In this document: in pieces, positions 912-55,285 of the stretch
How the letters are laid out: each line of letters opens with the position of its first letter
How positions within the stretch are numbered: the stretch's first letter is position 1
Source of the DNA: Octopus sinensis
Taxonomy: Eukaryota
Assembly: GCF_006345805.1 (NCBI RefSeq)
Contig: NC_043023.1
Coordinates: 6,696,001 to 6,760,000, forward strand
DNA length: 64,000 nt
Reading direction: 5' to 3'
The notes under the pieces: generated by a model
What the model saw: only the letters and a program-made list of their open reading frames with translations
The model's database searches: none
Told to the model about the DNA's origin: nothing
Made by a program: the position numbers and the translations under genes

Positions 912-950
912 GTCTTTAACGTTTCGAGCTTACGTTCTTCTACAGAAAGG
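912..950 (-). ncRNA. degenerate hammerhead in a small element inside (TA)n
   Basis: cttt-CTGTAGA-agaacgtaagctc-GAAA-C-GTT^aaag; core mutated. Confidence 0.4.
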
Positions 951-1676
951 AATACAGAAAGAAACAAGGAAAGAAAAAAATGTGTAGTGGCTAGCGATCT
1001 ATCATGGCGATATATATATATAATTATATATAAAAAAACGTTTTGCATAAGTTTTTACCGATCATGGCTTTTTCCATACCGAAACTACTTGGTAAAATTT
1101 ATTAATTATTAAATTAATAATTATTTACCCTATATCTGTAATAATATATATATAATGTATGTGTACCTACAGTATTTTATATACACACACACTCACACAA
1201 ACATATAGTATATATATGTGTGTATATATTTAAATATATGTATATATGTATGTATACATATGGGCTACTTTAATGTGGCAGTCCTCTTAAGAGGTGACGA
1301 TACTGCAGTTTAACCCCAGGAAGACATATCCTCCAGCTGGTTTATTCAATGTGCTTCTCACACCTGATATTTATTGCAAGTGAGAGATAACTTCTGTCAC
1401 CATAGCTTCAAGATCATGTGGTTTTGATCTGTATTGCATCTCCTTGGTGGTGGGCACTTGTTGCCAGGCATGGCTGCAGTTTACCTTGCTTGCAATATAT
1501 AGAAAACACAGTAGTAAAGATTGTTTGCCAACATAACATGGCAGTCCTGGTTTAGGACTAATGTTGCTGTAATTTAGCCCCAGGAGACATCGTCTTCAGC
1601 TGGCTATACAACACAATCTGTGTCCTGATATTTTCGAACAAGGGAATCTAGCACCCCCACTCAGCTCAAAACAATA

Positions 1677-1721
1677 TCTGTGTATCGTGATTTCCAGGTT
1701 ATTTCCCTTCCTCAGCACAGA
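1677..1721 (-). ncRNA. type I hammerhead motif
   Basis: tctgtg-CTGAGGA-aggg aaataa cctg-GAAA-tcacga-TA^cacaga. Confidence 0.65.
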
Positions 1722-3311
1722 ATAATTGCTCAGTTAGATGTGGCGCTGTCAAATTCCCATTCAAAATATATAGTTTTCAAAGTGACAAATTGCTAAATTA
1801 CAGCAACATTAGTCCTAACCCAGGACTGCCATGTTATGTTGGCAAACAATCTTTACTACAAAGTACTGTTGCTGAATATCTTACACTGTGAGATTTTAAA
1901 AATAGTAATTTTCTAATAGAAAACACAGGGTTATACAATCACTGATTTTGTAACTGCCACCTGACTGGCTCCCGTGCCGGTTGCACATAAAAAGCACTAT
2001 GCCTGTGCCACCAGAATGGCTTTCATGCCAGTTGCACATAAAAACACCATTCAAGCGTGGTCGATGCCTGTGCCGCCTGAATGGCTCCCATGCCAGTTGC
2101 ACATGAAAAGCACCATTCGAGCATGGTCGACGCTTGTGCCGCCTGACCGGCTCCTGTGCCGGTTGCACATAAAAGGCATGCACTACACTCTCGGAATGAT
2201 AGGTGTTAGGAAGAGCATCCAGCTGTAGAAACCTTGTCAAATCAGACTGGAGCCTGGTGCAGCCTCCCAGCCCTCAATCAGAAACCGCCCAACCCATGCC
2301 AGCATGGAAAGCAAGACAGTGGCTGTGTGGTAAGCAGGAGTGGCTGTGTGGTAAGTAGCTTGCTAACCAACCACATGGTTCCATGTTCAGTCCCACTGCA
2401 TGGCATCTTGGGCAAGTGCCTTCTGCTATAGCCCCGGGCCGACCAATGCCTTGTGAGTGGATTTGGTAGACGGAAACTGAAAGAAGCCTGTCGCATATAT
2501 GTATATATTTATGTTTGTGTGTCTGTGTTTGTCCCCCTAGCATTGCTTGACAACCAATGCTGGTGTGTTTACGTCCCCGTAACTTAGCGGTTCGGCAAAA
2601 GAGGCCGATAGAATAAGTACTGGGCTTACAAAGAATAAGTCCTGGGGTCGATTTGCTCGACTAAAGGCGGTGCTCCAGCATGGCTGCAGTCAAATGACTG
2701 AAACGAGTACAAAAAAAAAAAAATATGACAATGACGATGATGATGATGATTGAACTAGTCTGTTAGAAAATCTTTGTTCAAGACAGAAGTAGTATATGAA
2801 CCAGAAAGTACTGCTTATGGCCACGAGTACCCACCAAGGAGATCCAATACAAATCAAATCATGTGGTTTGGTAGGCTTAAAGCCAACAGAAAGAGTTGTA
2901 AACAGCAATGTTACATCCAATTCTTCATCATCATCATTTTAACCCTTTAGCGGTCAGATTACACTAATCTCAAATGTAATGCTTATCTGTTCATGTTATT
3001 TTGGATTAGTCATGTGTTATCTCATAGATTTGAAATTTCAATAATGTTAACTGTTCACAACATCTGATGTCTCTTATACCCAGTTTTCCCCTTAAATTAC
3101 TTATACTCTGTCGTATGTGCACACTGACATTACCCATCCAACAGATCAGGCTAGCTTCAATATATATATATATATATATATATATTGTATAGAGGGCATT
3201 ATTACACATAAATGCCTCACACTAAGAGGGACAAAGTCATTACTACCAAAATTATACTAATCATACCCAAATGCAGTTTTTCAAAGCAAGACATTTAAAA
3301 AAATGAATTTA

Positions 3312-3368
3312 GTTCTGTATCACCGTGATTTCACATTCAACTTTACGTCTTATGATCCTCAGCAGAAC
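3312..3368 (-). ncRNA. type I hammerhead motif (left arm of palindrome)
   Basis: Reverse-complement copy of 3508-3564. Confidence 0.65.
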
Positions 3369-3507
3369 TGATTCTGAACACATCATAATAAACTACCAAC
3401 CTTACGTAGCGAAGACGAACAGACAACTGCTCACTTGTCTGTTGAGCAGTTGTCTGTTTGTCTTCGCTACGTAAGGTTGGTAGTTTATTTATGATGTGTC
3501 AGAATCA

Positions 3508-3564
3508 GTTCTGCTGAGGATCATAAGACGTAAAATTGAATGTGAAATCACGGTGATACAGAAC
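3508..3564 (+). ncRNA. type I hammerhead motif (right arm of palindrome)
   Basis: gttctg-CTGAGGA-tcat...atgt-GAAA-tcacggtga-TA^cagaac; 6-bp stem I; the closing pair of stem II is a mismatch. Confidence 0.65.
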
Positions 3565-3809
3565 TAAATCATTTTTTTAAATGTCTTGCTTTGAAAAACT
3601 GCATTTGGGTATGATTAGTATAATTTTGGTAGTAATGACTTTGTCCCTCTTAGTGTGAGGCATTTATGTGTAATAATGCCCTCTATACAATATAGATATA
3701 ATTAATTTGTTCAAAAGAAAAAAATTTCTTTTATGAGGTTTTCACGCTAGCTACCCGATAATTTCTTGTTAAGATCCCTTATTAAGAGATTATCCTTAAT
3801 TGTTAAACT

Positions 3810-3840
<31 letters not shown>

Positions 3841-4160
3841 ATATATCACCGTGACCGACCAGGCTATCTGATGGTCACAATGTGCTTCGCATTGTTTTAG
3901 CCTTCAAATGACGCCATGTGTGTATATATCTATGAATGCGTGTACAATATATATACTTTTTTACACTTTTACTTGTTTCAGTCATTTGACTATGGCCTTT
4001 AGTCAAGCACATCGACCCCAAAACTTATTCTTTGTAAGCCTAGTACTTATTCTATCGGTCTCTTTTGCCAAACCGCTAAGTTACAGGGACGTAAACACAC
4101 CAACATCAGCCGTCAAGAGATGATGGGGGGACAAACACAGACACACAAACACACACACAC

Positions 4161-4199
<39 letters not shown>

Positions 4200-4624: not shown

Positions 4625-4730
4625 TATGTATATATATATATGTATATATACATATCTATATCTATATATACGTGTGTGTATGTATATATATGTATCTATA
4701 TATATGTGTATGTGTGTGTGTGTGTGTATG

Positions 4731-4789
<59 letters not shown>

Positions 4790-5060: not shown

Positions 5061-5139
<79 letters not shown>

Positions 5140-6189: not shown

Positions 6190-7195
6190 CAGGGTGTGAT
6201 AGGTGAATTCTTTCCATTTATATTTTTAATTTCACGCACATGCATTGTTTTGTTTTTGATTTTGTCAACTACACAGTATAGTAGGGTCAGTTGGGCACCA
6301 TCTAAGGTGGAGGGGACAAACACAGACACACAAATACACACACACAGAGATATCTACACATACGAGGGCTTCTTTCAGTTTCCATCTGCTGGATCTACTA
6401 ACAAGGCTTTGGTCAGCCCGAAGCTATAATGGAGGACACTTGCCCAAGGTGCCATACAGTGGGACTGAACCCAGAACCACGTGGTTGGGAAGCAAGCTTC
6501 TTACCACACAAGTTGCAATTCACTCTGCCAGAAATTTGGAAACAACATGCTATACTGCCTGGCATTTGTGCCGGAGGCTCTTCAGAGTGTTTGGATATCA
6601 ACCTGAGGACAGAGCATTCTGAGGACATGTAATGAGAATGATAAAAATCAAACATCATGGTGTTTGGAGTGAGCACTAGTCATGGTGATGTTATGCCTCC
6701 ATTCATCTTCCCACATGGCCTCAGAGTCAACATGAAAGCCTACAGCAAGAGCCTGGTGGAGGTAGTGCTGCCCTGGGTCAAGAGGGTGGCTGCTGGAAGA
6801 CCCTATGTCTGGCAACAGGACTCTGCACCATGCCACACAGGCAGGGAAATCCAGTCATGGCTGTCAAACAATTTCTGTGACCACATCACCCCTAACATGT
6901 GGCCACCTAACTCCCCATACTGCAACCCTCTTGATCACTGCGGGGTGCAGTTGAACGAGAGACCGATAAAACTCCTTGTAACACCAAAGATGAATTGAAG
7001 GCAAGGATTATGGCAGCATTCACCAACTTAAACAAGGAGACCATCCAGAAGAATTTCAGGAGATTCCAAAGTCATCTGGGGGCTGTGGTTGAAACCAATG
7101 GCGATTTTATTGACCAAATTTACTCTTTAGTATTTCAAGATATTTTTATGTAATTTTAGTAAATATATCTGTTAAAATGAGATGTCAGTTATTTT
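6190..7195 (+). mobile_element. decayed Tc1/mariner transposon, DD37D (maT) type, with a SINE insertion
   Basis: ORF 6657-6998 WQQDSAPCH...WPPNSPYCNPLD with 37 residues between the 2nd and 3rd Asp; ta-CAGGGTG terminus; frameshifted. Confidence 0.85.
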
Positions 7196-7603: not shown

Positions 7604-8228
7604 TATAATGTATATACACACACACATACATATATACACACACAAACACAAGCGCACACATGGTCAGTACCATGTTTTATATATATATATATATATATAA
7701 ATAATAAGGCAGCTAGCTGGCAGACACGTTAGCGCAGTGGGCGAAATGCTCAGCGGTATTTCGTCTGCCGTTACGCTCTGAGTTTAAATTCCACCGAGGT
7801 CGACTTTTCCTTTCATCCTTTCAGGGTCGATAAATTAAGTACCAGTTACGCACTGGGGTCGATATAATCGACTTGATCCCTTTGTCTGTCCTTGTTTGTC
7901 TCCTCTATGTTTAGCCCCCTGTAGGCAATAAAGAAATATTTATACATATATATATAATTCACTGACACTAAAAGTGACCAAGTGTTTAGTGAGCAGCAGC
8001 ATTGCTAGAAATAAGAGTCAAAGACTCCTTAGCCACAAGAAGTCACATGTTCTATTTGAACAGACAGGAGACAACATCTCCCCATCTTGATTGAGCTGCA
8101 TTAGATTAACATACTAATTTCGTATAAGAAATTAATACTCGTCAGTAATGCTTACTGCATCACAGGTGGTGCTGCTGAAATCACACCTGTTAGCATTATA
8201 GGAAATACCATTGAAATACCATAGAACC

Positions 8229-8890
8229 AACACCAGTGCTATTAATGTGGCACCAACACCAATGCTGTTAATGTGGCACCAGTGCTATTAAAGTAGCACC
8301 AGCATCAGTGTTTAAGTGGGTACCTGCATCAGTGCTTTTAATGTGGTACCTGCACCAGTGCTGTTAATGTAGTATCAGCATCAGTGCTTTTAATGTAGCA
8401 CCAGCATCAGTGCTTTTAATGTGGCACCAGCACCAAAGCTTTTAATGTGGCACCAGCACCAGTGCTATTAAAGTAGTACCAACACCAATGCTTTTAATGT
8501 GGTACCTGCACCAGTGCTATTAATGTGGCACCAACACCAATGCTGTTAATGTGGCACCAGTGCTATTAAAGTAGCACCAGCATCAGTGTTTTTAATGTGG
8601 TACCTGCATCAGTGCTTTTAATGTGGTACCTGCACCAGTGCTGTTAATGTAGTATCAGCATCAGTGCTTTTAATGTAGCACCAGCATCAGTGCTTTTAAT
8701 GTGGCACCAGCACCAGTGCTATTAATGTAGCACCAGCATCAGTGCTTTTAATGTAGCACCAGCAACAGTGCCTTTAATGTGGCACCAACACCAAAGCTTT
8801 TAATGTGGCACCAGCACCAGTGCTATTAAAGTAGTACCAACACCAATGCTTTTAATGTGGCACCAGTGCTATTAATGTAGCACCAGCATG
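8229..8890. repeat. minisatellite, unit about 24 bp (gcaccagcatcagtgcttttaatgt)
   Basis: Visible tandem units; block 8231-8500 is largely duplicated from about 8510. Confidence 0.95.
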
Positions 8891-9264
8891 AGCAATGTGT
8901 GTGTGTGTGTGTGTGTGTGTGTTGTCTTTGTGTCTGTGTTTGCCCCCACCACCACCACCACCACCATCACCACCTGACAACCAGTGTTGGTGCGTTTACA
9001 TCCCCCTAATATAGCAGTCCAGTGAATGAGACCAATAGAATAAGCACCAGGTTTAAAGACAAATGAGTATTGGGGTCAGTTCATTTGACTCAGATTCCTT
9101 CAAGGCAATGCCCCAGCATGGCCACAATCTAACGACAGAAACAAGTAAAAGATAGCAGCTAAAGATAGAGCCTAAAACCACGGTGCCTGTAACCAAGTCA
9201 TTCTCCATTACAAGCAACAACCGTAGTTTTAGTCAAGTCATTTTGTTGTGTTGTACACGCATAC

Positions 9265-11444: not shown

Positions 11445-13495
11445 AACAGATATAACTAATGATGTGTGCACACACACACACAAACTCTGTTTGAGCAGAC
11501 ATAACTAATGACATACACAGATTTAGCCCACATAGGCTGTTTGTGGTTAAACAGACATAACTAATGATGCACAATCTCTGGTTAAACAGCAGACATAACT
11601 AATGACACACCTAAATGCAAAGGAATCTCAGGTTTAGCAGACATAACTAATAACACACACACACAGACATAACTAATCGCAAATGCACAAGGATGATCTC
11701 TGATTAACAGACATAACTAATGACACACACAAACAGAAAGAGAATTCTGGCTACACAGACATAACTAATGATGCACAAAGACACACAGACTATCTATACA
11801 CAAGTTAAATAGATCCGGTCAGACATAACTAATGACACACACACAGACATAACTAACCGCATATATAGAGACAATCCGGTTAAAAAGACATAACTAATGA
11901 CACGACTAAATGCAAAAACAGCTCAGATTTAGCAGACATAACTAACCGCATACATGCTGAGACAATCTGGTTAAAAAGACATAACTAATGACACAACAAA
12001 ATACAAAAATGGCTCAGATTTAGCAGACATAACTAACCGCATACCTGCTGAGACAATCTGGTTAAAAAGACATAACTAATGACACACACACAGACATAAC
12101 TAACCGCATACATGCTGAGACAATCTGGTTAAAAAGACATAACTAATGACACAACTAAATGCAAAAAACAGCTCAGATTTAGCAGACATAACTAATGACA
12201 CACATAGACATAACTAACCGCATACAGAGACAATCTGGTTAAAAAGACATAACTAATGACACAACTAAATGCAAAAAACAGCTCAGATTTAGCAGACATA
12301 ACTAATGACACACATAGACATAACTAACCGCATACAGAGACAATCTGGTTAAAAAGACATAACTAATGGCACAACTAAATGCAAAAAACAGCTCAAATTT
12401 AGCAGACATAACTAATAACACACACACACAGACATAACTAATCGCAATGCACAAGGATGATCTCTGATTAACAGACATAACTAATGACACACACAAACAG
12501 AAAGAGAATTCTGGCTACACAGACATAACTAATGATGCACAAAGACACACAGACTATCTATACACAAGTTAAATAGATCCGGTCAGACATAACTAATGAC
12601 ACACCTAAATGCAAGGAAATTTAGCAGACATAACTAATGACACACACACAGACATAACTAACCGCATATATAGAGACAATCCGGTTAAAAAGACATAACT
12701 AATGACACGACTAAATGCAAAAACAGCTCAGATTTAGCAGACATAACTAATGACACACACACAGACATAACTAACCGCATACATACAGAGACAATTGGTT
12801 AAAAACACATAACTAATGACACAAATAAATGCAAAAACAGCTCAGATTTAGCAGACATAACTAACCGCATACATGCTGAGACAATCTGGTTAAAAAGACA
12901 TAACTAATGACACACACACAGACATAACTAACCGCATACATGCTGAGACAATCTGGTTAAAAAGACATAACTAATGACACACACACAGACATAACTAACC
13001 GCATACATGCTGAGACAATCTGGTTAAAAAGACATAACTAATGACACAACTAAATGCAAAAAAACAGCTCAGATTTAGCAGACATAACTAATGACACACA
13101 TAGACATAACTAACCGCATACAGAGACAATCTGGTTAAAAAGACATAACTAATGACACAACTAAATGCAAAAAAACAGCTCAGATTTAGCAGACATAACT
13201 AATGACACACATAGACATAACTAACCGCATACAGAGACAATCTGGTTAAAAAGACATAACTAATGACACAAATAAATGCAAAAAACAGCTCAGATTTAGC
13301 AGACATAACTAATGACACACATAGACATAACTAACCGCATACAGAGACAATCTGGTTAAAAAGACATAACTAATGGCACAACTAAATGCAAAAAACAGCT
13401 CAAATTTAGCAGACATAACTAATGACACACACACAGACATAACTAATCGCAAATGCACAAGGAAGATCTCTGATTAACAGACATAACTAACGACA
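11445..13495. repeat. complex minisatellite with invariant core AGACATAACTAA and higher-order structure
   Basis: Core recurs every 20-45 bp with a small set of reused linkers. Confidence 0.95.
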
Positions 13496-13665
13496 CGCCG
13501 GATAAACACTGACAATCTCGACTTAACACAGATGCACACATACACATAAAAACACACACATACACACACACACACGCACACACACACACACGCATGCACA
13601 CGCATGTACACACACCCCACACACACTGCCTGTTTTTCTGCTTAAGCTAGTTCTCATGTACTCGC

Positions 13666-16895: not shown

Positions 16896-17117
16896 TATAT
16901 ATATATTTGATGGATATCTGCCTCATCTCTTTTGATGGAGTTTGAGGATGCTGACCATTGATCCTCTAGGATTCCTCTGCTCAGCATATGGCGTAGTGGT
17001 TAAGAATGCGGGCTACTAACCCCAAGATTCTGAGTTCGATTCTGGGCAGTGACCTGAATAATAACAATAATTATTATTTACAATTGACGGATATTTGTCC
17101 TCATCTTGTTTGTTGTT

Positions 17118-17165
17118 AACACAACGTTTCGGCTGATATACCCTCCAGCCTTCATCAGGTGTCTT
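17118..17165 (-). ncRNA. minimal type I hammerhead motif
   Basis: gacac-CTGATGA-a-ggctg...cagcc-GAAA-C-GTT^gtgtt; loopless palindromic stem III (AACGTT). Confidence 0.7.
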
Positions 17166-24224: not shown

Positions 24225-25137
24225 CAATCACAGTAGAAGACCTTCAAAATTGGATGCAGATGTTTTGAAAGCTAAATCCAAAGAAAACTCAAATATCACA
24301 ACCAGAGAACTTGCAGAAGAGTTGGAAGTTTCTAAAAGTATGTCTCATAAACACCTAGTGAAGCTAGGATACATTTCTCACTAAGATGTATGGGTCCTTC
24401 ATAAATTCTTAGAAGAGAACTGCTTGGACCAGTATTCCATTTGTGATATGCTTTTGAAACAGAATGAAAGCATGGCTTTTTTGAAACAACTTGTAACTGG
24501 AGATGAAAAATGGATTGTGTATGAAAATGTGGTGTGAAAAAGATCCTGGAGTTTGCGTAAGGATTCCTCAAAACAGCAACCAAAGACGAACATCTATGCC
24601 AAACTGCTTTGTGTTTGGTGGAATTGGAAAGGCTTTATATATCATGAGCTTCTCACACAAAACTAGACCATTAATTCTGATGTGTACTGTCATCCACTGG
24701 CTAATTTGAACCAAAAAATCAAAGAATTGAGGCTGGATATTGCTCACAGGAAAGGGGTAGTGTTCCAACATGACAATGCCCGACCACATGTTTCTTTGGC
24801 TACCCGAAGAAAGTTATATGAACCTGGCTGGGATCTTTTACCCCATCCACCATATTCTCCTGATATTGCACCATCAGACTACCATTTGGTTTTGTCTCTA
24901 CAGAACTCATTGCAAGGAAAAACTTTTAATGATTTAGATGGAGTCAAAATGCATCTAGAAAACTTTTTTTCTTCAAAACCAGTCAAATTTTATGCTGGTG
25001 GAATATTTAAATTGCCTGATAGAAGGGCAAAAGTCATTAATAATAATGGAAATTATTTCACTGAATATAATTTTGTGAAAGGTCAATTATTTATATCCAT
25101 TTTTGCATATTAAAAAACGCTCAGAACTTTCCGACAG
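24225..25137 (+). mobile_element. decayed mariner transposase (DD34D)
   Basis: VTGDEKW at about 24493; FQHDNARPH...HPPYSPDIAPSDYHL with 34-residue spacing; stops and frameshifts. Confidence 0.92.
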
Positions 25138-25359: not shown

Positions 25360-26448
25360 CATCATCATCATCATCATCATTGTTTAACATCTGCTTTCCA
25401 TGCTAGCATGGGTTGGACAATTTGACTGAGGTCTGGCGAACCAGATGGCTGCACCAGGCCCCAATCTGATCTGGCAGAGTTTCTACAGCTGGATGCCCTT
25501 CCTAACGCCAACCACTCCGAGAGTGTAGTGGGTGCTTTTACGTGCCACCGGCATGAGAGCCAGTCAGGTGGTACTGGCGATGGCCATGCTCAAATGGTGT
25601 TTTTTATGTGCCACCTGCACAGGAGCCAGTCCAGCGGCACTGGCAACAACCTCGCTCGAATGTTTTTTCAAGTGCCACTAGCACAAGTGCCAGTAAGGCG
25701 ACGCAGGTGACGATACGCTTGAATGGTGTCTTTTACGTGCTTGTTGCTCTGGCAATGATCACGCTCATATGGTACTCTTAGCGCTCCACAAGTACGGATG
25801 CCAGTCATCAAATTTGAATTTGATTTCGATTTCACTTGCCTCAACAGGTCTTCACAAGCAGAGTTTGGTGTCCAATGAAGGAAAGGTATGCATAAGCGGA
25901 TTGGTTACACCACTGGCATAGGCCAAAAGGTTATGGTCTCACTTGAGCTTGCCAAGTCTTCTCAAGCACAGCATATTTCCAAAGGTCCCGGTCACTAATC
26001 AAGCCTCAGTGAGGCCCAATGTTCGAAGGTCATTCTTCACCACCTCATCCCAGATCTTCCTAGGTCTACCTCTTCCACAGGTTCCCTCAACCGCTAGAGT
26101 GTGGCACTTTTTCACACAGCTATCCACATCCATTCTCGCCACATGACCATACCAGCGCAGTCGTCTCTCTTGCACACCACAACTGATGTTTCTTAGGTCC
26201 AACTTTTCTCTCAAGGTACTTACACTCTGTCGAGTATGCACACTGACATTACACATCCATCGGAGCATACTGGCTTCATTCCTTGTGAGCTTAATTGTGT
26301 GTCCTCAGCAGTCACAGCCCATAGTTCATTGCCATGTAGCATGGCTGTTCGTACACATGTGTCATACAGTCTACCTTTTACTCTGAGCAAGAGGCCCTTT
26401 GTCACCAGCAGAGGTAGGAGCTCTCTGAACTTTGCCCAGGCTATTCTC
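25360..26448 (-). mobile_element. RTE-clade LINE 3' end with repeat-containing 3' UTR and (GAT)n tail
   Basis: MLRWMCNVS...RRLRWYGHVARM...GTCGRGRPRKIW; related pieces at 1950-2320, 3050-3160, 47620-48322, 49245-49900 and 51090-51300. Confidence 0.92.
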
Positions 26449-26595
26449 ATGTTTACATCGTTTTTGATGCCAAGTTCTCACATCAGTAAATGTTCCATGG
26501 TCATTTACTAGGATTCCTTTAACCCTTTAATATTTGGATTTTCCTGTGAAATGTAATACTTGTTTATTTATATTGTTTTAAATCAATGCATGTAA

Positions 26596-27291
26596 AATGC
26601 ACCAATCCGATTGTGGCCGTTGCCAGCCTCGCCTGGCACCTGTGCAGGTGGCACGTAAAAAGCACCAATCCGACCGTGGCCGATGCCAGCCTCGCCTGGC
26701 ACCTGTGCAGGTGGCACGTAAAAAGCACCAATCCGACCGTGGCCGATGCCAGCCTCGCCTGGCACCTGTGCAGGTGGCACGTAAAAAGCACCAATCCGAC
26801 CGTGGCCGATGCCAGCCTCGCCTGGCACCTGTGCAGGTGGCACGTAAAAAGCACCAATCCGACCGTGGCCGATGCCAGCCTCGCCTGGCACCTGTGCAGG
26901 TGGCACGTAAAAAGCACCAATCCGACCGTGGCCAATGCCAGCCTCGCCTGGCACCTGTGCAGGTGGCACGTAAAAAGCACCAATCCGACCGTGGCCGATG
27001 CCAGCCTCGCCTGGCACTGTGCAGGTGGCACGTAAAAAGCCCAATCCGACGTGGCCGATGCCAGCCTCGCCTGGCACCTGTGCAGGTGGCACGTAAAAAG
27101 CACCAATCCGACCGTGGCCGATGCCAGCCTCGCCTGGCACCTGTGCAGGTGGCACGTAAAAAGCACCAATCCGACCGTGGCCGATGCCAGCCTCGCCTGG
27201 CACCTGTGCAGGTGGCACGTAAAAACCACCAATCCGACCGTGGCCGATGCCAGCCTCGCCTGGCACCTGTGCAGGTGGCACGTAAAAAGCA
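26596..27291 (+). repeat. 63-bp tandem array (about 11 copies) within an RTE 3' UTR ending at about 27450
   Basis: Unit tgccagcctcgcctggcacctgtgcaggtggcacgtaaaaagcaccaatccgaccgtggccga, near identical. Confidence 0.97.
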
Positions 27292-28736
27292 CCCACCACA
27301 CTCATGGAGTGGTTGGCGTTAGGAAGGGCATCCAGCTGTAGAAACACTGCCAGATCAGACTGGAGCCTGGTGCAGCCTTCTGGCTTCCCAGACCCCGGTC
27401 GAACCGTCCAACCCATGCTAGCATGGAGAACAGACGTTAAACGATGATAATAATGAAATTAATCATGCACTACCTTGTAGTTTAGAGACATCGAAGATGT
27501 GATCCCTTAGTTTTAGAAAGACATTGTAGGGTTCAGGTGAGAGGTCAGATCTGGTCAGTTTCAACATAAAACAGGTTAAATAGTTTGGTCAGTTATGGCC
27601 GGTTTGAATGCTAAACGGTTACTCTCTTTACTCTTTTACTTGTTTCAGTCATTTGACTGCGGCCATGCTGGAGCACCGCCTTTAATCGAGCAACTCGACT
27701 CCAGGACTTATTCTTTTGTAAGCCCAGTACTTATTCTATCGGTCTCTTTTGCCGAACCGCTAAGTAACGGGGACATAAACACACCAACATCGGTTGTCAA
27801 GCAATGCTAGGGGGACAAACACAGACACACAAACACACACCAAGGCTTTGGTTGGTCCGAGGCTATAGTAGAAGACACTTGCCCAAGGTGCCACACAGTG
27901 GGACTGAACCCGGAACCATATGGTTGGTTAGCAAGCTACTCACCACACAGCCACTCCTGCGCCTAATTTTAATTTCTTTTTCTTTTGGTTTACCAAGGCC
28001 TAATTCCCCATAGGAGGGGGTAGCCACAACATGACCCACACCTGGCATTCCATTCATTTCCCAAACTCAAAGAGGTGAACCCCGTCTCATGCTTGGGTCC
28101 AGGCATAGAAAGCAAAAGCCTGACATCATATGCTGGTTTACCCCCGCCACATCATGCTGGTTCTGTACCCCTTTGAGGGTTAAAATAACAAAGCCAAAAG
28201 TTAACACACACACACATATAGGTGCAGGTGTCGCTGTGTGTAATGAGTTTGCTTCCCAACCATATGGTTCTGGGTTCAGTCCCACTGCACAGCGCCTTCT
28301 ACTATAGCCTTGGGCCAACCAAAGCCTTGTGAGTGGATTTGGTAGACGGAAACTGAAAGAAGCCCAGACCCAGGAAGACATGTGATGAGGTGGTGAGAAA
28401 GGATCTACAGTTTTTGGGACACACAGAGATGACGACAGGGAACCGAGACCCCTGGTGGTTTGCTGTGCTTTGCATACAGGCTTATCCCCTGCAAACCTCT
28501 CAGGCTGAGTATCCCTAATCATGTGGGCTCATAGGTGCTGGTGTCATGTAAAAAAACACTCATACCAGTGCTGAGCAAAAATACCCAGTACACTTTGTAG
28601 AGTGGGTCATATTAGGAAGGGCACATGCCAAGACAGACGAGGACCCTGAACAGCCCTTCAGCTGTTCAGCTCCTGTCAAATTGTACAACCCATGCCAGCA
28701 TGGAAAAACGGAAATTCAATGATGATGATGATGATG

Positions 28737-30280: not shown

Positions 30281-30327
30281 TACACATGGACTCGAGTTTC
30301 AGGGTATTGACCTGTCATCAGTGTGTG
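30281..30327 (-). ncRNA. type I hammerhead motif
   Basis: cacaca-CTGATGA-c-agg...cct-GAAA-CTCGAG-TC^ca-tgtgta; two extra nt before the 3' strand of stem I. Confidence 0.6.
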
Positions 30328-32545: not shown

Positions 32546-32621
32546 TATATATAATATATATATATATATATAAATAAATGAAAGAATGGAGTCGAACGAA
32601 GATGTTAACAAAATTCCTTTA

Positions 32622-32703
32622 CTCTCGACACATGTTTCGAAGACAGCATATTTTCATTCCGAAGGAATAAAGGGTGCATTATGCAATCTTCTCATCAGGA
32701 AAG
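32622..32703 (-). ncRNA. type I hammerhead ribozyme, canonical core
   Basis: ctttc-CTGATGA-GAAGA...TCTTC-GAAA-C-ATGT-GTC^gagag; stem II extends through GCATA/TATGC and carries a C(TTCG)G hairpin. Confidence 0.85.
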
Positions 32704-32942
32704 AAAAGGAGCCTCTCTCAACAACAGGACAAACAAAAATTTCGATGATTGCTTACATGGCAACCAAAGCGATAATGAGTCTAATATATTCATTCTATAT
32801 CGAGTGAAAAAACAGTATGGACGATTTGTTTTGGAGTCTAGCAATACCATGTACGCCTGTGAGGATTTACTTTCCCAATGAAACTCGGTTTTTTCTCAAA
32901 CCTGTTATAATGTGATACAAGTCTTTGGTGTGGCAATTGTAC

Positions 32943-33035
32943 GCGGCTGAAGAAGGCTTTTGATCTATCTGTTATATCAATTATGCATTGATATAAGAAT
33001 AAGTTGTTCAATAAAGCCTGAAACATATGTACCGC
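32943..33035 (+). ncRNA. type I hammerhead ribozyme, canonical core
   Basis: gcgg-CTGAAGA-AGGCTTT...AAAGCCT-GAAA-CATATG-TA^ccgc; GUA cleavage triplet; inner hairpin tatatcaat/attgatata. Confidence 0.85.
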
Positions 33036-38880: not shown

Positions 38881-39179
38881 ATGTTTGTGCGTCTGTGTTT
38901 GTCCCCCCCCAACATCGCTTGACAACCGATGCTGGTGTGTTTACATCGCCATCACTTAGCGGTTCGGCAAAAGAGACCGATACTGGGCTTACAAAGAATA
39001 AGTCCCGGGGTCGAGTTGCTCGACTAAAGGCGGTGCTCCAGCATGGCCGCAGTCAAATGACTGAAACAAGTAAAAGAGTAAAGAGTAACACTATATGTAT
39101 GTATGCATATAATAATATATAAATATATGCATATATACATAGATATATGTACATACCTACATATATATGTATATATAAA

Positions 39180-39480
39180 TGCATATATGGGTACAGGACA
39201 CCAAAAAAACGTTGGACACAATGAGAAACGAAAACATAAAAGCTAAACATGGAAACAAACTTTTTTTCAAATAACAAAAAAAACAGAGTACAAGACATAC
39301 AACACAAGGAATATTCCCCTTCTTCAGTTGTCCCTGTTTCTTCTACTCCATGTTTCGAAGATAAGGACAAGACACGAATTCGTTGAAACAGTCATTCCCG
39401 GAAATGTTTTTGTTTTTATGTTTTCATTTCTCATTGTGTTCAACGTTTTTTTGATGTCCTGTATCCATATATGCATATAT
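39180..39480. mobile_element. fold-back element with about 70-bp terminal inverted repeats in TA-rich sequence
   Basis: gcatatatgggtacaggacaccaaaaaaacgttg... mirrored by ...caacgtttttttgatgtcctgtatccatatatgc; homologous to 63421 onward. Confidence 0.8.
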
Positions 39481-41108
39481 ATATACATATATATGTAGGT
39501 ATGTACATATATGTATGTATATATGCATATACTCTTTTACTTGTTTCAGTTATTTGACTGCAGCCATGCTGGAGCACCACCTTTAGTCGAGCAAATCGAC
39601 CCCGGAACTTATTCCTTGTAAGCCCAGTACTTTTTCTATCAGTCTCTTTTTGCCAAACCGCTAAGTAATGGGGACATAAACACACCAGCATCGGTTGTCA
39701 AGCGATGTTGGGGGGACAAACACAGACACACACACACACACACACACATACATACATATATACGACAGGCTTCTTTCAGTTTCCGTCTACCAAATCCACT
39801 CACAAGGCTTTGGTCGGCCCGAGGCAAGAGTAGAAGACACTTGCCCAAGGTGCCACGCAGTGGGAATGAACCCAGAACCATGTAAACTAGCTACTTACCA
39901 CACAGCTACTCCTGCGCCTTGTTTAATATTGTTTATATTATTACATGATCGAATGCCACACATCCTTTTCCAAGTAAGTTTTGTGTATATATGTATATAC
40001 ATATATGTGTGTGTGTGTGTGTGTGCCTCCCACCCCCACCACTTGATAACTGGTGGTGGTGTATTTATGTCCCTGTAACTTAGCAGTTTGGCAAAAGGTA
40101 CTGATAGAATAAGTACTATGCTTCAAAAATAATAATTCCTACAGCAGATTTTTTTGACTAAAACCCTTCAAGGTGTTGCTCCAGCATGGCTGCAGTCAAA
40201 TGCCTGAAACAAATAAATGATTGAATTTATATCTAAACTGACGGAGTGGAACAGTTAAAATCCAGATTGCATATGTTTCCTAGCTAGCCGATTCTCTGAT
40301 GTAATGATCACCCAATGAAGGGTTACACTCATCAATAATCGTATTCTTATCTTATATGTATTGAATTTTAATGTATATATGTATGTTATTATGGTTCTTG
40401 TATTGTTAAATAAATAAATAAGTCAACATTATAATATCTGAAAGCTGATGAGCAAACTAAATTGTTTCTCCATTTTCTTATTTGCAATATAAATTAATGG
40501 TAAAATATTTCTTTACCTTCACCCATTTAATACAATAAGTGAGTTAATTGCATGGCAATTAAAAACACTTGTGTATTAATAACTTGGGTATATATATATA
40601 TATATATATATGTATTAATAACTTGGGTATATATATATATATATAAAAATTTGTTGGGGCTGCTATTTCTACTAAGTTCAGTATGTGGCAAAGTAATTTA
40701 TTTTACTAAGCCCTAATTATATAATGTAATATTTTGAATTCGCCTTAAATGGTCCTTTTACATACTGAACACTTGGTGAAATTGATTAATTAATTAATTT
40801 TACCCTCAATTGTTGATATATATATTTCACGTTCATTATATATAAAAACATTCATTCTTATATATATATATATATACAAAAAGCAATAAAGATTCAAGTT
40901 AATTTAAATGAATTTACTTGAATATGGTACCTAACTTAGATGCACCAAAAACAAACTATACTGTTTTAACAATACAGTAATGTGGGTTGATTATAAGCGA
41001 GAAAGAAGCAACAAGAATGGATAGGTTTTTAGTACAATCGTTTCATACAAGGACAGGCTTTATTAAAAGTTGTAAAAATTACAGCATATAAACGTATATA
41101 TATATACA

Positions 41109-42694: not shown

Positions 42695-45355
42695 AATTAT
42701 TATATACAGTGCTCAGGTGCACCATAACTTGTCAGAAAGTGCGTATAAAGCATATGCAGTAATGTACAAATGTCTGGGAAGTGAACAGTGTATGAGTCAG
42801 ATACATGCTTGTGTGTGTATGGAGGGGAGAAAATCAGGTGTAGTGTTGGCGAATCTCAGGAAGTATGGAAGTTTTGAAGGATGCAATGCTCCGACAACTA
42901 ACAACTGATGCCAGCAGTTTGTTCCATGCTTCAGCAACTCTTAGCATGAAAAAATGTTTCCTAAAGTCATGGGAGCTGTGCTGTTTTCTGACTTTGTAAA
43001 CATGTCCTTGGGTGTTAGACAGGTGGAGTTTGAAAAGGTGCTCAGAGTTATTGTTTGTAAGATGGTTAATAATTTTATGGGTGTCTGCCAAGTCAGCTGC
43101 CAGACATCGGAGTTTCAATGTGTCCATGCCCAGGGAAGTAAGGCGTTCAGAATATGGCAAATGCCTGATGGAGGGTATTCTCTTGGTTGTGCATCGCTGA
43201 ACGGTTTCCAGATATTCATGTTCCAAACATAAGTTTAACAGTGATATAGTTATTTTAACTAAATTCTTCATTATTTTCAGAATGAATTGAAACAAAGCCA
43301 AGTGTATTTAACAGAAATATGGTAACAAAAGGGTTAAAGTGATCAAATTTAAAACCTTCCCTCAAATTTTCATGTTAATTTATGTTCCAAAGACCAGTTT
43401 AACCCTTTCGTTACTGTATTTCTATTGAGATGCTCTGTGTTTCTTTCAATTCATTTTCAATATAACAAAGAATTTAGTAAAATAACTTAGTTATTATAAA
43501 GCTAGTGTTAGGAACATAAATTGTGACTAAGGTTTGGTGGAAGATTTTAATTCAATACTTATGAAAACAAGACATTTGTACTATAGAGCCAGAGGCAGTT
43601 TCAGTGGGGTTGGTACCAAAAGGGTTAAGAATTGTTTCTCCATTATATATCTTAACCCTTTTGTTACCATATTTCTGTTGAGATGTTCTGTGTTTCTTTC
43701 AATTACTTTAAATATAACAAAGAATTTAGTAAAATAACTTAGTTATCATTCAGCTAGTATTAGGAACATAAATTGTGACTAAGGTTTGGTGGAAGATTTT
43801 AATTCAAAACTTATGAAAACAAGACATTTATACTACAGAGCCAGAGCCAGTTTCAGCCGGGTTGGTAATGAAAGGGTTAGGAATGGCAATGTAATTTTCA
43901 AGGAGACAGAGATACACACACACACATATACACACACACATACACACAAACACACACACATAAAAACATACACGCACATACACACACACAAAACACACTA
44001 ACATGGACATGCAAACACATGAATATGTAGAATACATACATACAAATGTACACACAGAAATAGATACATACACACACGTATATACATACACACACATGCA
44101 TATATACATACATGTATGTGTATGCACACACACACACACACAGATTCACATGCATGCACACAAACAAACAAAAAGGAACACGGTGTAAATAACGGACAGA
44201 GTCAAGACTATTGAAAGGTTGCAAGACACAGCGAAAATTTTAGGAAAATAAAAATAAGAAATAAGTGGAAGTTTTACCAGTGAGTGTGTTACATCATAAG
44301 GCACAAAAAGAAAATGACTCTCCCCAGACACAACAGAATATGCTTCAATGGTATTTCCAAAATTAATTGAACCCAGCGTAGTGTATTTCAACAGAAATAT
44401 GGTAACAAAAGGGTTAAAGTGATCTAAATTAAAAACTTCCTATCAAAGTTTCATGCTACTTTTTAACTCTTTTACTTGTTTCAGTCATGTGACCGTGGCC
44501 ACGCTGGAGCACCGCCTTTAGTTGAGCAAATCAACACCATGACTTATTCTTTGGTAGCCTAGTACTTATTCTATCGGTCTCTTTTGCTAACTGCTAAGTT
44601 ACGGGGACGCAAACACACCAGCATCAGTTGTCAAGCGATGTTAAGGGGACAAACACAGGCACACAAACACACACACACACACACATATCATTATCATCAT
44701 CATCATCATTTAACGTCTGCTTTCCATGCTAGCATGGGATGGACAATTTGACTGAGGACTAGCGAAATATATACATATATAGAACGGGCTTCTTCCAGCT
44801 TCCGTCTACTAAATCCTCTCACAAGGCTTTGGTCGGCCCAAGGCTATAGTAGAAGACACTTGCCCAAGGTGCCACACAGTGGGACTGAACCTGGAACCAT
44901 GTGGTTAGTAAGCAAGCTACTTACCACACAGCCACTCCTACGCCTAATTTATATTCCAAACATAGGTTTAATAATAATACTATTTCACTAAATTCTTTAT
45001 TATTTTTCAAAATTTACAGGAACAAAGAAAGTGCATTTCAACAGAAATATGGTAACAAAAGGGTTAAAGTGATCTAAATTACAACATTACTTTATAATTT
45101 CCTACTAATTTATGCTCCAAACACCAGCTTAATAATGACAAATAGATTTTACTCTTTTACTTGTTTCAGTCCTTCGACTGTAGCCATGCTGGAGCACCAC
45201 CTTTAGTCGAACAAATCGACCCATGACTTATTCTTTGTAAGCCTAGTACTTATTCTATTGGTCTCTTTTGCTAACCGCTAAGTTACGGGGACGCAAACAC
45301 ACCAGCATCAGTTGTCAAGTGATGTTCGGGGGACAAACACAGGCACACAAACATA

Positions 45356-46110: not shown

Positions 46111-46801
46111 AAAACCTACCAAGTATGTAAGTAGGAGGACAAAGCCAAAATAGTATTTTTTATGCAGCCAACACTTTAATGATGATGAGTGAAAAGACAA
46201 AGAAATAAGAAAACAATGACAGTCTCTGAGAAGATGACACCAATTACAATGTAAGACCAATGGAACAACCTTGAGCGAAGTTGATATATTTTAAATATTT
46301 GGAATCTTTTGTTATTATATCAGATAGGTGGCTGTGTGTGCAAAGACGTTTGCTTTCCAGCCACATTGTTCCTGGTTCAGTCTCACTGAGTGGCACCTTG
46401 GGCAAGTGTTTTCTACTATAGCCTTGGGCCAACCAAAGCCTTGTGAGTGGATTTGGTAGACGGAAACTGAAAGAAGCCCATCGTATATATGTATATATAT
46501 ATATATATATATGCGTGTGTGTGTTTGTGTGTCTGTGTTTGTCCCCCCAACATCACTTGACAACCGATGCTGGTGTGTTTATGTCCCCATTACTTAGTGG
46601 TTTGGCAAAAGAGACCGATAGAATAAGTACTGGGCTTACAAAAGAATAAGTCCTGGGGTCGAGTTGCTTGATTAAAGGCGGTGCTCCAGCATGGCCGCAG
46701 TCAAATGACTGAAACAAGTAAAAGAGTAAAAAGAGTATATATATACATTATGTACATTATTTACATTTGATGGATATTTGTCCTCATTTTTGTTTGTTGT
46801 T

Positions 46802-46848
46802 AACACAACGTTTCGGCTGATATACCCTCCAGCCTTCATCAGGTGTCT
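46802..46848 (-). ncRNA. minimal type I hammerhead motif (same family as 17118)
   Basis: Core and stems identical to 17118-17165. Confidence 0.7.
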
Positions 46849-46899
46849 TGGGAAATTTCAAACCTGGGTTCTCATTCCTAAAGTATTTTTTCAATGTAC

Positions 46900-46960
<61 letters not shown>

Positions 46961-47123
46961 TATTATTCAGGTCACAGCCTGGAATCGAACTCGGAATCTT
47001 GGGGTTAGTAGCCCACACTCTTAACCACTACGCCAAGGCACTTGGCATAGTGGTTAAGAGCGTGGGCTACTGACGCCAAGATTCCGAGTTCGATTCCAAG
47101 CAGTGACCTGAATGATGATGATG

Positions 47124-47170
<47 letters not shown>

Positions 47171-47249
47171 TATAATAATTATAATAAAAATAATAAGTAC
47201 ATTGAAAAAATACCTTAGGAATGAGAACCCAGGTTTGAAATTTCCACAA

Positions 47250-47291
47250 GACACCTGATGAAGGGTGGGGATATATCAGCTGAAATGTGTT
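47250..47291 (+). ncRNA. degenerate hammerhead (same family, stem III deleted)
   Basis: gacac-CTGATGA-agggtg...cagct-GAAA-tgtgtt; lacks the CGT of stem III. Confidence 0.5.
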
Positions 47292-47488
47292 GACAACAAA
47301 AAAGATGAGGACAAATATCCATCAAATGTAAATAATGTAAATAATTCCTCATCTCTCAAATATAGAACTGTATTATTTATATATAAAGTTAATCCAAACA
47401 TGAAAACACAAAGAGAAAACACAACAACGCGAGGACGTGCAACAAATATAGTATTACTGGACGCTCAGGAAGGAAGGGAAGAAGGAGG

Positions 47489-47523
47489 GTTTGACGTTTT
47501 GAGTGGAGCTCTTCGTCGGAAAC
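47489..47523 (-). ncRNA. degenerate hammerhead
   Basis: gttt-CCGACGA-a-gag ctcca ctc-AAAA-C-GTC^aaac; two core substitutions. Confidence 0.4.
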
Positions 47524-51332: not shown

Positions 51333-51367
<35 letters not shown>

Positions 51368-52328: not shown

Positions 52329-52723
52329 ACGGAAGTGACCTTATCAGACTCGTCCTTTTTGACCTTAGCCCTTTGGTATACGATAAAAATCCGAAATTCA
52401 ATGTTATTTACCCCCAAATCTGCTAAAAACTTTCCCTGTTATACGTGTTTATTATTATTATTATTTACTATTTTACGTCTTGTCTTCAAATTTCGCCAAG
52501 GTCGACTTTCTCTTTCATTCTTTCAGGGCCGACTAAATAGGTACCAGTCAAGCAGTGGGTGGGGTCCACGTACTCGATTAGTCCCCTTCCCAACAAATTT
52601 CAGGTCCCAGGCTAATAATAAAAAAAGATTTTCATTAATTAATTGTAATCGCGTGTTGTGCTTTTGTGTGAAGCAGAGTTATTTACCCTTTATTACCGGA
52701 TGTGACCTCTCAAACTTTGACCC
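52329..52723 (+). promoter_or_regulatory. TOMM22 proximal promoter with ETS/GABP-like and TGACCT nuclear-receptor half-sites
   Basis: CGGAAGTGACCTT at 52330, TGACCTT at 52360, CCGGATGTGACCT at 52696; locally CpG-richer sequence upstream of the ATG. Confidence 0.45.
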
Positions 52724-52783
52724 AGTCATTTCGCCCTTCCCCTGCGTGTGTGTCTCATTCCTCTCTTACACAAGACAAATACG

Positions 52784-52828
52784 ATGGCAGATGAAAACCT
52801 CTTGAGCTTAGAAGACAAGGACGACGAT
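52784..52828 (+). CDS. TOMM22: TOMM22 exon 1 (MADENLLSLEDKDDD)
   Basis: ATG at 52784 (acgATGg), acidic peptide, GTAAG donor at 52829; phase 0 joins exon 2 to give DDD-ELDETLAER, the acidic Tom22 cytosolic motif. Confidence 0.85.
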
Positions 52829-54815
52829 GTAAGCATTCTTCACACCTTTATTTCATTATAATTCTTATCACCATCATCTATTCATGCGATGGCTGGCATC
52901 GTCTCAAAAACCTCCCAACACCTCCATAAATTGTCCTTCAGGGTCGATCGAGGTCTTTCGTCTCCGGCTTCTGTTATAATTCCTTTCACATCCTGGGTAT
53001 TTTATAAGAATATTATATCTTTGTAGTATTTCACTGCTATTTTATTTCAACAAAGGTCGAAAGGAAAATTATTTATATAATTTATTATAATTCCCTTCGC
53101 TTTTAGGATATTTTATAGGAATATTTTATCAACCCCGAAGGTTGAAAGATAAAGTTAGTGTTAATCTCCCGTTGTAATTCCATTCCCATCTGGGATGTTT
53201 TATCTAGATTTTAAATACACATTAGAAGGCATTCTTTCGATATAACTCGACAAAATCAAAACATTTCACTTGGGGTATTTCCGTGGGTTGTGGAGTATAG
53301 ATATAACGAAATTATACCAGCATATTTCTTCTTACCTGTTTCATGTGTGTATGTAAAATCCGCAAATTTCCAAACAGAAAAACAGAATCGAACTGTCATT
53401 TGCTTCGACGGAAATACCCAAAGTTAAGTGTTTTGATTTTGTCGAGTTATATCGAAAGATTGCCGAAATCCTTCGGTATTGGTACACAACACTTTTCACC
53501 CACACAACCTTCCCTCGTGGCATAGGTAAAGAGGCTAGGCTGAAAAAGAGGGTGAATAACGACTCGCTGGAGACCAATACCGAAGGTTCCCCCGTGGAGG
53601 TTTATATTTTTGTATGTAAAATTCTTTCCATTACTTAACTGGAATATATACAAGCAAACACACACAAATTGGGACTTTGTTTAATGTCAGATCCAACCGC
53701 TGTAACTCCTCGAATCGAAACCGCTCATTGATCGATTTCATTATTTTTATCGACCACCAAAAGAGAAGACGCAAAATCGATCTCGGTAGGATTGAAGCCC
53801 AGAACGTGAAATGCCGCAACTAAATTACTGAATATCATTTTTATCTGAAGCTGAAAGCATATTCTTCGAAATCCATCGATCCATCGTCAAACACAATGGC
53901 GCTGTTTCGATTTTCCATTCAATCCAGCATGAGTTGATTTTTATTTCAATGAATTCGTTTCGTTTCGGAAGTAATGTGTAAAAAGCAGAACGGAAACACG
54001 GAAATAGACACATTTCCGTCTGTTTTATACACGCTCCCATATAATTTGTGTTTATATATTGCTACGGTTACATACATCGGGTGTACTGAAGGGTTCCTGT
54101 TTTTCAGGGTGTTGCGAAAGTACTGGTTGGAGGCCCTAACTTCCGAGTTCTTTTACAGGGCTTAGTAAACCTGAAGGACCATAGGCGCTGTGTGGTAAGT
54201 TGCTTGCTTACCAACCACATGGTTCCGGGTTCAGTCCCGCTGCGTGGCATCTTGGGCAAGTGTCTTCTACTATAGCCTCGGGCTGACCAAAGCCTTGTGA
54301 GTGGATTTGGTAGGCGGAAACTGAAAGAAGCCCATCATATATCATCATCATCATTTAACGTCCGTTTTCCACGCTAGCATGGGTTGGACGGTTCGACTGG
54401 GGTCTGGAAGCCATGGAGGCTGCACCAGGCTCTAGTCTGATTTGGTAGTGTTTCTACAGCTGGGTGCCCTTCCTAATGCCAACCACTCTGAGTGTAGTGG
54501 GTGTTTTTTACGTGCCAGACGAGGGTACGATCAGATGGTGCTTTTACGTGTTATATGTGTATATATATGTGTGTGTGTCTGAATTTGTCCCAGCCCAACA
54601 TCGTTTGACAACTGATGCTGGTATGTTTGGTAAAAGAGACCGATAGAATTAGTACTAGGCTTACAAAGGCAGTGCTCCAGCATGGCCGCAATCAAATGAC
54701 TGAAACAAGTAAAAGAGAGACCGCTGCAATGTGTGAATCTGAATGATGAATATGTTGAATAAAATCATTATTAACTGATCCGTCTGCACTTTTCAGCACC
54801 CCCCTCCCATGTGTA

Positions 54816-54846
<31 letters not shown>

Positions 54847-55209
54847 TCAAATCAAAATCAATTTGATGACTGGCATCCGTGCTAGCGGGGTGCAAAGAGC
54901 ACCATACGAGTATGATCGTTACCCAGCGTCGCCTTACTGGCACTTTGTAAAAAGATTCGAGCGAGGTTGTTGCCAGTGCCGCCTGACTGGCCCCCATGCC
55001 GGTGGCACATAAAAAGTACCCACTGCACTCTCGGAGTGGTTGGCATTAGGAAGGGCATCCAGCTGTAGAAACTCTGTCCAACCCATGCTAGCATGGAAAG
55101 CGGACGTTAAACGATGATGATGATATTATATTAGGAAAAAGGACAACAAAATCCAAGGCAAGACAGGTGTCTCAAGTCCTTTAGAATATTTAATTAAGGT
55201 GAATTTGGA

Positions 55210-55285
55210 GTCTTACAGCTGTTTCTGGGATATCCCGACTGATAAGCTAGCATGTCTGTACACTGGGTATTCTGTCATCAGAGGC
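55210..55285 (-). ncRNA. type I hammerhead motif, antisense in TOMM22 intron 1
   Basis: gcct-CTGATGA-cagaataccc...gggatatccca-GAAA-CAGCTG-TA^agac; imperfect stems I and II. Confidence 0.55.

Follow-up and report, generated by a model that had tools for sequence, protein, structure and literature searches.

Hammerhead ribozymes of Penelope-like elements are the closest described relatives of most motifs considered here. They lie in the pseudo-long-terminal repeats of metazoan elements, occur as many families per genome in thousands of copies, show covariation, and have low activity as dimers (PMC4209133); a base is inserted between positions 9 and 10.1, the 10.1-11.1 pair is G-C, the segment 15.2-16.2 is palindromic, and pairs on opposite strands lie 100-700 base pairs (bp) apart (PMC4209133). 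Two reviews agree on this class (PMC6765202, PMC7761336). Animal non-long-terminal-repeat retrozymes carry canonical type I motifs in tandem units of 150-450 bp (PMC7229834). A further class, type SGC (HRIMA-1 and variants), cleaves in vitro and typically has a 3-nucleotide (nt) linker from stem I to stem II and a fourth, joining helix (Eckert et al. 2023, PMC10085705). The published data on type SGC are all from metatranscriptomes, mostly spruce-associated (Supplementary Note 1, PMC10085705), and the zero-length link seen in this type was noted as unexplained (PMC10085705).

Here we describe a 64,000-nt window of the Octopus sinensis genome (RefSeq assembly GCF_006345805.1, contig NC_043023.1, positions 6,696,001 to 6,760,000 of the forward strand), in which an initial annotation had listed hammerhead motifs with palindromic stem III. 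Positions are those of the window, and sites are named in kilobases (e.g., 63.6k). We conclude, with a probability of about 0.62, that the window holds remnants of likely Penelope-type retroelements, comprising 13 type I hammerhead sites and two copies of a repeat with a predicted SGC hammerhead (Table 1). The repeat is the new element: it would be a permuted SGC family in an animal genome, whereas the literature found gives this block order from environmental RNA only. No report of type SGC in an animal genome was found in the accessible text of the largely open-access literature consulted, including PMC6962438, PMC3088659, PMC7229834, PMC10886601 and 10.1101/2021.04.23.441226.

Two CUGANGA sites on the minus strand, at 63559 and 39327, failed as type I motifs and have a GAAA block upstream. 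When the blocks were scanned in any order, both sites took the order site-GAAA-CUGANGA, with stems I/II/III of 9/4/5 at 63.6k (score 40) and 8/5/7 at 39.3k (score 42); in 400 shuffles the best score was 35 for any order and 31 for the SGC order. Both copies have three crossing helices (I, II and III), all the conserved core bases, A15.1-U16.1, a UH site and G10.1-C11.1. Assignment to type II or III was rejected because no nested order passes; assignment to decayed type I was rejected on the same ground, and also because stem III is not palindromic and stem II is weak in the best type I alignment of 39.3k. The published SGC descriptor (stem III 4-7, stem I 4-7, linker 0-8, stem II 2-6, link 0-15; PMC10085705), run with the core CUGANGA[N]G, recovered exactly these two sites, with no match in 1000 shuffles. 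With the published core strings CUGAUGAG and CUGAUGAUG it gave no match in the window, because the inserted base in both copies is an A. We conclude that the SGC fold is probably real, and the two copies are predicted to form a self-cutting, knotted structure cut after GUC or GUU.

Copy 1, at 63.6k, is ordered as the long left arm of stem III, the GUU site, the 1.x strand, a linker, 11.x-GAAA-15.x, the right arm, and 2.x-CUGAUGA-A-10.x. Copy 2, at 39.3k, has a stem I of 6-8 bp, a stem II of 5 bp, and a stem III of 7 bp with a distal 7-bp helix. The site-GAAA-CUGANGA order, crossing helices, short linker, intact core and G10.1-C11.1 are all shared with the published SGC ribozymes (PMC10085705). 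The window copies differ from these in the inserted A (the published descriptors allow U or none), in a weaker stem II, a short joining helix and a distal stem III that abuts stem I, and in being a high-copy animal-genome repeat rather than metatranscriptome contigs (PMC10085705). With the Penelope hammerheads they have the inserted A in common, although their block order is different and is not described in the accessible text of that study (PMC4209133). This A is a Penelope-type feature and is present also at 17.1k. Together with the inverted tail of the 39.3k repeat, its insertion among (TA)n tracts and the higher sequencing depth of the 3' tail, it leads us to infer a link of the SGC family to Penelope elements; an inverted tail copy after insertion is a layout described for Penelope-like elements (10.1101/2021.04.23.441226).

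The two copies differ at N7, at H17, by a compensatory change at 1.1-2.1 (C-G versus U-A) and by one-sided changes in stem III. Over both, 42 of 44 stem cells are paired, compared with 41-59% in slid controls. Public sequencing runs extended this comparison. The stretch 63440-63720 was present in 20 of 24 listed runs (10 studies, four coded species labels), and contigs matching at 80% likeness numbered 4159, 3363, 1204 and 469 in four runs. None of the listed runs with the stretch is registered as RNA, although run X8 may be. Motif depth divided by the depth of long single contigs gave copy numbers of ~600-21,000 at positions 1.4 and N7 in three runs, an order of magnitude only, as depth is no copy number. 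Forty of the 44 variant rows were covered, and 23 rows between 63535 and 63624 were mapped onto copy 1. Variation fell at 19 of 85 positions and at none of the 13 core positions (P 0.028, subject to mapping bias); N7 varied in the runs (14-31%).

Stem I carries one double-sided change and a pair of changes matched in depth in three of four runs, whereas stem III carries one-sided changes only. The summed depths of the matched pair, 1.4 U>C versus 2.4 A>G, were 64,247 versus 55,862, 124,500 versus 106,488, and 8,572 versus 7,260. Relative to the window base, 7 of the 18 variant rows on paired positions improve pairing, 3 are neutral and 8 weaken it. Among the seven majority variants, four improve the long stem III, one weakens it, one is neutral, and one is the 1.4 change. 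A loose end in one run (X2; 16 contigs) belongs to another subfamily, in which the GUC site and 1.x strand are those of the 39k type. A second loose end in run X2, at 63559 (14 contigs), marks a subfamily with a different 2.x strand. Depth was highest over the CUGANGA block and its 3' tail, which fits 5'-truncated retrocopies. A candidate class of copies cut off 5' at the predicted cleavage site was rejected: the depth dip at 63610-63629 recovers upstream and fits local divergence. No places where many molecules begin or end were listed in the runs, whose contigs cannot show RNA ends, nor was any tail-to-head joint for the SGC family; the family pattern had no match in the metagenome contigs or the viral contigs scanned.

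Two side observations adjoin the SGC fold. A 10-nt palindrome lies just 3' of stem II (63540-63549 and 39308-39317, minus strand); it is perfect in the 39k copy, is restored in the 63k subfamily by a variant at 28-38% of reads, and might provide an extra dimer contact. A hairpin of about 10 bp at 63632-63662 (minus strand) lies upstream of copy 1, and its sequence is also high-copy in the runs.

We propose that an SGC transcript would pair its 16.x with its 15.x strand to form stem III, and that the CUGANGA block would then dock on the loop displaying the 1.x and 11.x strands (linker about 4 nt) to form stems I and II. We rate the chance that intact family members cleave as slightly better than even. 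Cleavage would shorten the element RNA on its 5' side, a role already proposed for other Penelope hammerheads. Stem III can extend to about 20 positions, of which 16 pair in the 63k copy; its end is immediately at position 2.6, so that its distal extension would run straight into the 2.x strand. By A-form geometry, once this helix is complete the CUGANGA block would sit far from the loop of its own molecule. A formed distal stem III would therefore likely impose an off state or favour cleavage between two molecules. In a monomer, the distal part would open and the right arm would pair with the 3' tail as the joining helix; in a dimer, the CUGANGA block would dock on the loop of a second molecule, head to tail. 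Either the off state or the head-to-tail dimer would follow the same regulatory logic as the palindromic type I dimers. Partner-dependence of SGC cleavage we hold at well under even odds. The scheme as a whole, an animal retroelement family of thousands of copies with an active SGC ribozyme of Penelope-type core, in which the long stem III blocks self-docking and two RNAs cut each other head to tail, is speculative, and we think it unlikely in its entirety.

A possible alternative, which we hold at well under even odds, is that the family folds and cuts as a plain monomeric pseudoknot, the distal stem III being a foldback by-product with no role. Both copies fit the published descriptor, and published SGC ribozymes cleave efficiently during transcription (PMC10085705). 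A helix worth -3.8 to -5.2 kcal/mol, with either 3+3 bp or 5 bp and a bulge, could join stems I and II, and a monomer would use it; it is short, has mismatches, shows no covariation and competes with the distal stem III. The distal helix itself points both ways: it is unstable in the 63k copy (+0.7 kcal/mol), as a monomer would allow, but forms 7 uninterrupted bp in the 39k copy (-6.5 kcal/mol), and majority read variants restore it in the 63k subfamily.

We also think it unlikely that the SGC arrangement is a fossil or accident, a rearranged type I element end that no longer cuts and is passively amplified. One mobile master would suffice for the high copy number, and Naiad elements spread without hammerheads (10.1101/2021.04.23.441226). 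Against this reading stand the distribution of variation, which lies at N7, H17 and the compensated stem I pair with no core variant in the rows covered, and the survival of the full fold in two subfamilies that are 77% identical. Several results nonetheless weigh against our preferred reading, and some of them lend support to a fossil. In register, stem II is weak: the pairs G-C, G-U, G-U and G-C give 0.0 to -2.6 kcal/mol. A rival pairing out of register, which occupies G8 and A9 and could lock the motif, is stronger, at -4.6 kcal/mol for the 63k copy and, for the 39k copy, -2.8 against -1.9. In both copies, moreover, the sequence lying upstream of the predicted cut is still present. Stem II shows no covariation, as the rows covered include no variant at 10.1-10.4 or 11.1-11.4. 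The depths at 1.4 and 2.4 disagreed in the fourth run (1,290 versus 2,224), and no contig was shown with both changes. Among the eight weakening rows, two are the 1.4/2.4 pair, three change to G-U and three to a mismatch. A two-sequence shuffle control for the stems was uninformative (242/500), and nested-folding z-scores of 0.84 and -1.08 were not significant, although nested folding cannot score pseudoknots. Finally, Pfam found no Penelope reverse transcriptase or GIY-YIG domain among 20 open reading frames, and none was recognised on visual inspection of the translated surroundings of the 13 type I sites.

Type SGC has so far been known from environmental contigs of unknown hosts, with its origin left open. 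An animal family would supply a genetic context, retroelement RNA processing, and a handle on the origin of the non-circular permutation. A high-copy SGC family beside type I relatives with the same inserted A would also provide thousands of natural variants for covariation analysis. If head-to-tail cleavage is true, it would be a second, palindrome-free route to partner-dependent cutting, and a possible answer to the puzzling zero-length link of type SGC. Whole ribozyme families in animal repeats escape Rfam and descriptors restricted to types I-III or to a U as the inserted base. In the window, Rfam gave no hammerhead match at the gathering score, and no hammerhead appeared among the best 150 of 256 rows of a whole-window E-value scan or in three local scans; matches to microRNA families were rejected as artefacts of microsatellites or foldbacks.

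The type I sites, numbered on the standard hammerhead scheme with stem III taken as the segment A15.1..U16.1, are more ordinary. The initial annotation had listed about ten hammerheads; all 11 of its sites were located, and the inventory grew to 13 with 8.1k and 47.25k, which it had missed along with the two SGC copies. Five of the 13 are intact (8.1k, 17.1k, 32.6k, 33.0k and 46.8k) and eight are decayed. In this one window the density is ~200 sites per Mb, or 80 intact per Mb. Their assignment as minimal Penelope-kind hammerheads held, the type I order, core and helices I and II being intact in 5 of 13 sites and helix III self-complementary in 5/5 intact sites. Four of the 11 listed sites (17.1k, 46.8k, 32.6k and 33.0k) are undamaged in core and helix register, and seven are damaged, two by core substitutions (0.9k and 47.5k) and five with the core letters kept and a helix broken or shifted (1.7k, 3.3k, 3.5k, 30.3k and 55.2k). 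At 1.7k, 3.3k and 3.5k, stem II is only 3 bp and requires an additional base before G12. The base inserted between A9 and 10.1 is found among the intact sites at 17.1k and 46.8k only, and the 10.1-11.1 pair at 33.0k is A-U, not G10.1-C11.1.

Table 1. Hammerhead motifs and the repeats that carry the SGC copies, in window coordinates.
Feature	Positions	Strand	Remarks
Type-SGC (non-circularly permuted) hammerhead, copy 1	63548..63624	-	GUU site; predicted cut between 63604 and 63603
Type-SGC hammerhead, copy 2	39315..39391	-	GUC site; predicted cut between 39371 and 39370
Repeat body with SGC copy 1	63309..63637	-	77% identical to 39092-39404, over 330 bp
Repeat with SGC copy 2	39092..39531	-	Body 39092-39404, then inverted copy of its tail 39408-39531 (93.5%)
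Decayed type I	914..949	-	Core A6>U; stem III ACGU
Type I	1677..1721	-	Core letters kept; stem II out of register; 6/8 positions self-paired in stem III; homologue of 30.3k
Type I	3311..3369	-	Left arm of 260-bp foldback; stem I 7 bp, stem III 10/11, stem II weak
Type I	3507..3565	+	Mirror of 3.3k motif in right foldback arm; arms 97.7% identical
Intact type I	8098..8151	-	AUC site; 14-nt self-complementary stem III, could also form monomer hairpin
Intact minimal type I	17118..17163	-	A inserted after A9; stem II 6 bp; stem III ACGU; GUU site
Type I	30282..30326	-	Core letters kept; stem III ACUCGAGU; stem I pairing needs 2-nt offset
Intact type I	32615..32710	-	Stem I 11/12 pairs; long stem II; stem III ACAUGUGU (8 nt, G-U palindrome); GUC site
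Intact type I	32943..33035	+	Stem II 7 bp plus long insert; stem III ACAUAUGU; GUA site
Intact type I	46802..46847	-	Copy of 17.1k family; left foldback arm
Decayed type I	47250..47294	+	Mirror copy of 46.8k motif
Decayed type I	47489..47523	-	Core U4>C and G12>A; stem III ACGU
Decayed type I	55208..55287	-	Core letters preserved, as is the 8-nt palindrome; 2 bp in stem I, 0 bp in stem II

Compared with the Penelope hammerheads, nothing essential is different in these 13 sites: the order is the same, helix III is palindromic, and the motifs are mostly dispersed and single (PMC4209133). Some do have long stem II inserts, or a stem III of 8-14 nt able to fold as a monomer, unlike the minimal motifs of that study (PMC4209133). 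The class, the covariation argument and the abundance are already published for Penelope-like elements, so the type I sites as listed add one more local example to a class known since 2014. The repeats of the window also resemble the retrozymes in being non-coding, AT-rich and high-copy hammerhead repeats, found in a mollusc as well (PMC7229834). They differ from the retrozymes in that no head-to-tail tandem hammerhead array was found in the window, where the motifs are single or in inverted pairs.

The stem III segments had been described as self-complementary or nearly so, each different and each belonging to an unrelated family. Self-complementarity was borne out, being complete at 8 of 11 listed sites (at 32.6k only with G-U pairs) and nearly so at three (6/8, 10/11 and 10/11), although two of the palindromes were listed out of register: 'AACGTT' takes in A14 and H17, the true segment being ACGU, and 'ACATGT' is part of the 8-nt ACAUGUGU. 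The segments are not all different, as ACGU occurs at four sites. Nor are the families all unrelated; in 66 pairwise comparisons, each set against 200 shuffles, 1.7k and 30.3k were homologous (z 12.3, 0/200 shuffles) and 0.9k and 47.5k weakly so (z 4.6, 1/200). A 23-nt match between the flanks of 0.9k and 63.6k was set aside as weak and pyrimidine-rich. The statement that most motifs leave no room for a loop holds strictly for the four ACGU sites, whereas segments of 8, 11 and 14 nt can form 2-5 bp plus a loop. Change that preserves the palindrome was also seen: the homologous 1.7k and 30.3k motifs differ by two double-sided stem III changes, real though thin support for selection on self-complementarity.

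The initial annotation had further suggested that the palindromes act as a family-specific pairing code, so that only like copies cleave. We consider this improbable. The stem III segments do come in four lengths, some pairs of equal length match at only 3-6 of 8 positions, and the palindromes of the homologous 1.7k and 30.3k sites differ, as a code might have it. However, ACGU pairs equally among 0.9k, 17.1k and 47.5k (10 x 10 matrix) and serves the 17k/46.8k family as well as the 0.9k and 47.5k sites, its self-duplex being worth just -1.7 kcal/mol. Segments from 32.6k and 33.0k pair 8/8 at -7.0 kcal/mol, compared with -6.0 and -7.0 for the homodimers. Eight of the 13 sites are decayed, two pairs lie on opposite strands of foldbacks, and homodimer symmetry by itself forces a palindrome. 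Moreover, stem I already blocks nearly all heterodimers, with at most 3 contiguous pairs in 88 of 90 heterologous combinations and 4 in the two exceptions. In a double hammerhead, the CUGANGA and GAAA blocks would come from one RNA and the cleavage site from the other, with stem I swapped like stem III; we infer this from the topology of the double hammerhead and the Fig. 1A legend of PMC4209133. Because cross-pairing is rare in stem I and possible in stem III, family specificity in type I dimers, where present, would lie mostly in stem I, the better discriminator. The palindrome of stem III is likely no more than a consequence of homodimeric cleavage. No paper describing a stem III pairing code in hammerheads was found in the accessible literature searched.

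The type I motifs far exceeded shuffled controls. A strict descriptor that did not require a palindrome in stem III gave five matches, compared with means of 0.045-0.14 and a maximum of 2 in five rounds of 200 k-let shuffles that preserved 2- to 6-mers across the window or within blocks. All five (5/5) had a self-complementary stem III (G-U allowed), as did 0-14% of the shuffled matches, and the reversed and complemented windows gave no strict match. In a relaxed score-based scan, 12 sites were observed against a mean of 5.0 at score 10, and 5 against 0.04 at score 20; with so sizeable a background, the decayed sites rest on homology and anatomy, not on individual significance. That all the motifs are chance matches in AT-rich repeats is very improbable, and is refuted for the five intact type I and two SGC sites: the window is indeed low in complexity and rich in repeats, and the weakest sites, 55.2k among them, do not individually reach significance in the relaxed scan, but the strict and SGC descriptors lie far above shuffles up to 6-mer preservation.

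Two inverted pairs, 3.3k/3.5k and 46.8k/47.25k, form the arms of foldbacks at 3175-3700 and 46758-47334, a layout compatible with the pseudo-long-terminal repeats of Penelope-like elements. Their copies thus lie on opposite strands, which would allow no dimer within one transcript and would leave them buried in long duplex. These foldbacks are long and near-perfect, and double-stranded RNA would be expected from them if transcribed. A transfer RNA (tRNA)-like head with A- and B-box-like motifs (16989-17062, plus strand; 46962-47035, minus; 47043-47116, plus) adjoins every copy of the 17.1k/46.8k/47.25k family, and at 47.0-47.3k the order is head, (AAT)n, hammerhead and tail. This family may be a short interspersed nuclear element (SINE), driven by RNA polymerase III, with a Penelope-type end. 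The head was not called by ARAGORN, which found no tRNAs in the window, and no description of a SINE with a tRNA-like head and a Penelope-type hammerhead end was found in the literature searched. The SINE-like repeats of the window resemble what we take to be octopus SINEs.

Repeats and microsatellites abound in the window, a stretch of eukaryotic DNA with a GC content of 29-51%. No descriptor match falls within its five tandem arrays, at 56603-58473 (104-bp units), 26486-27419 (63), 8259-8970 (26), 59803-60170 (17) and 12053-13545 (110). Transposase- or long interspersed nuclear element (LINE)-end-like fragments, which we largely presume to be mariner-type transposases and LINE ends, lie at 6645-6998 (plus), 24667-25113 (plus), 25999-26304 (minus) and 42834-43307 (minus); the first is the sole one of the four with a Pfam match, a weak one to DDE_3 below the cut-off. 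Exons of Tom22 (Pfam PF04281) were identified on the plus strand at 55576-55797 and 59053-59136, with a possible first exon near 52760-52828. The 55.2k motif is antisense to Tom22, ~300 nt upstream of an exon, and probably in intron 1. Twelve of the 15 hammerhead motifs are on the minus strand, opposite to Tom22 (P 0.035), a bias that could reflect the loss of sense-strand cutters from the host transcript.

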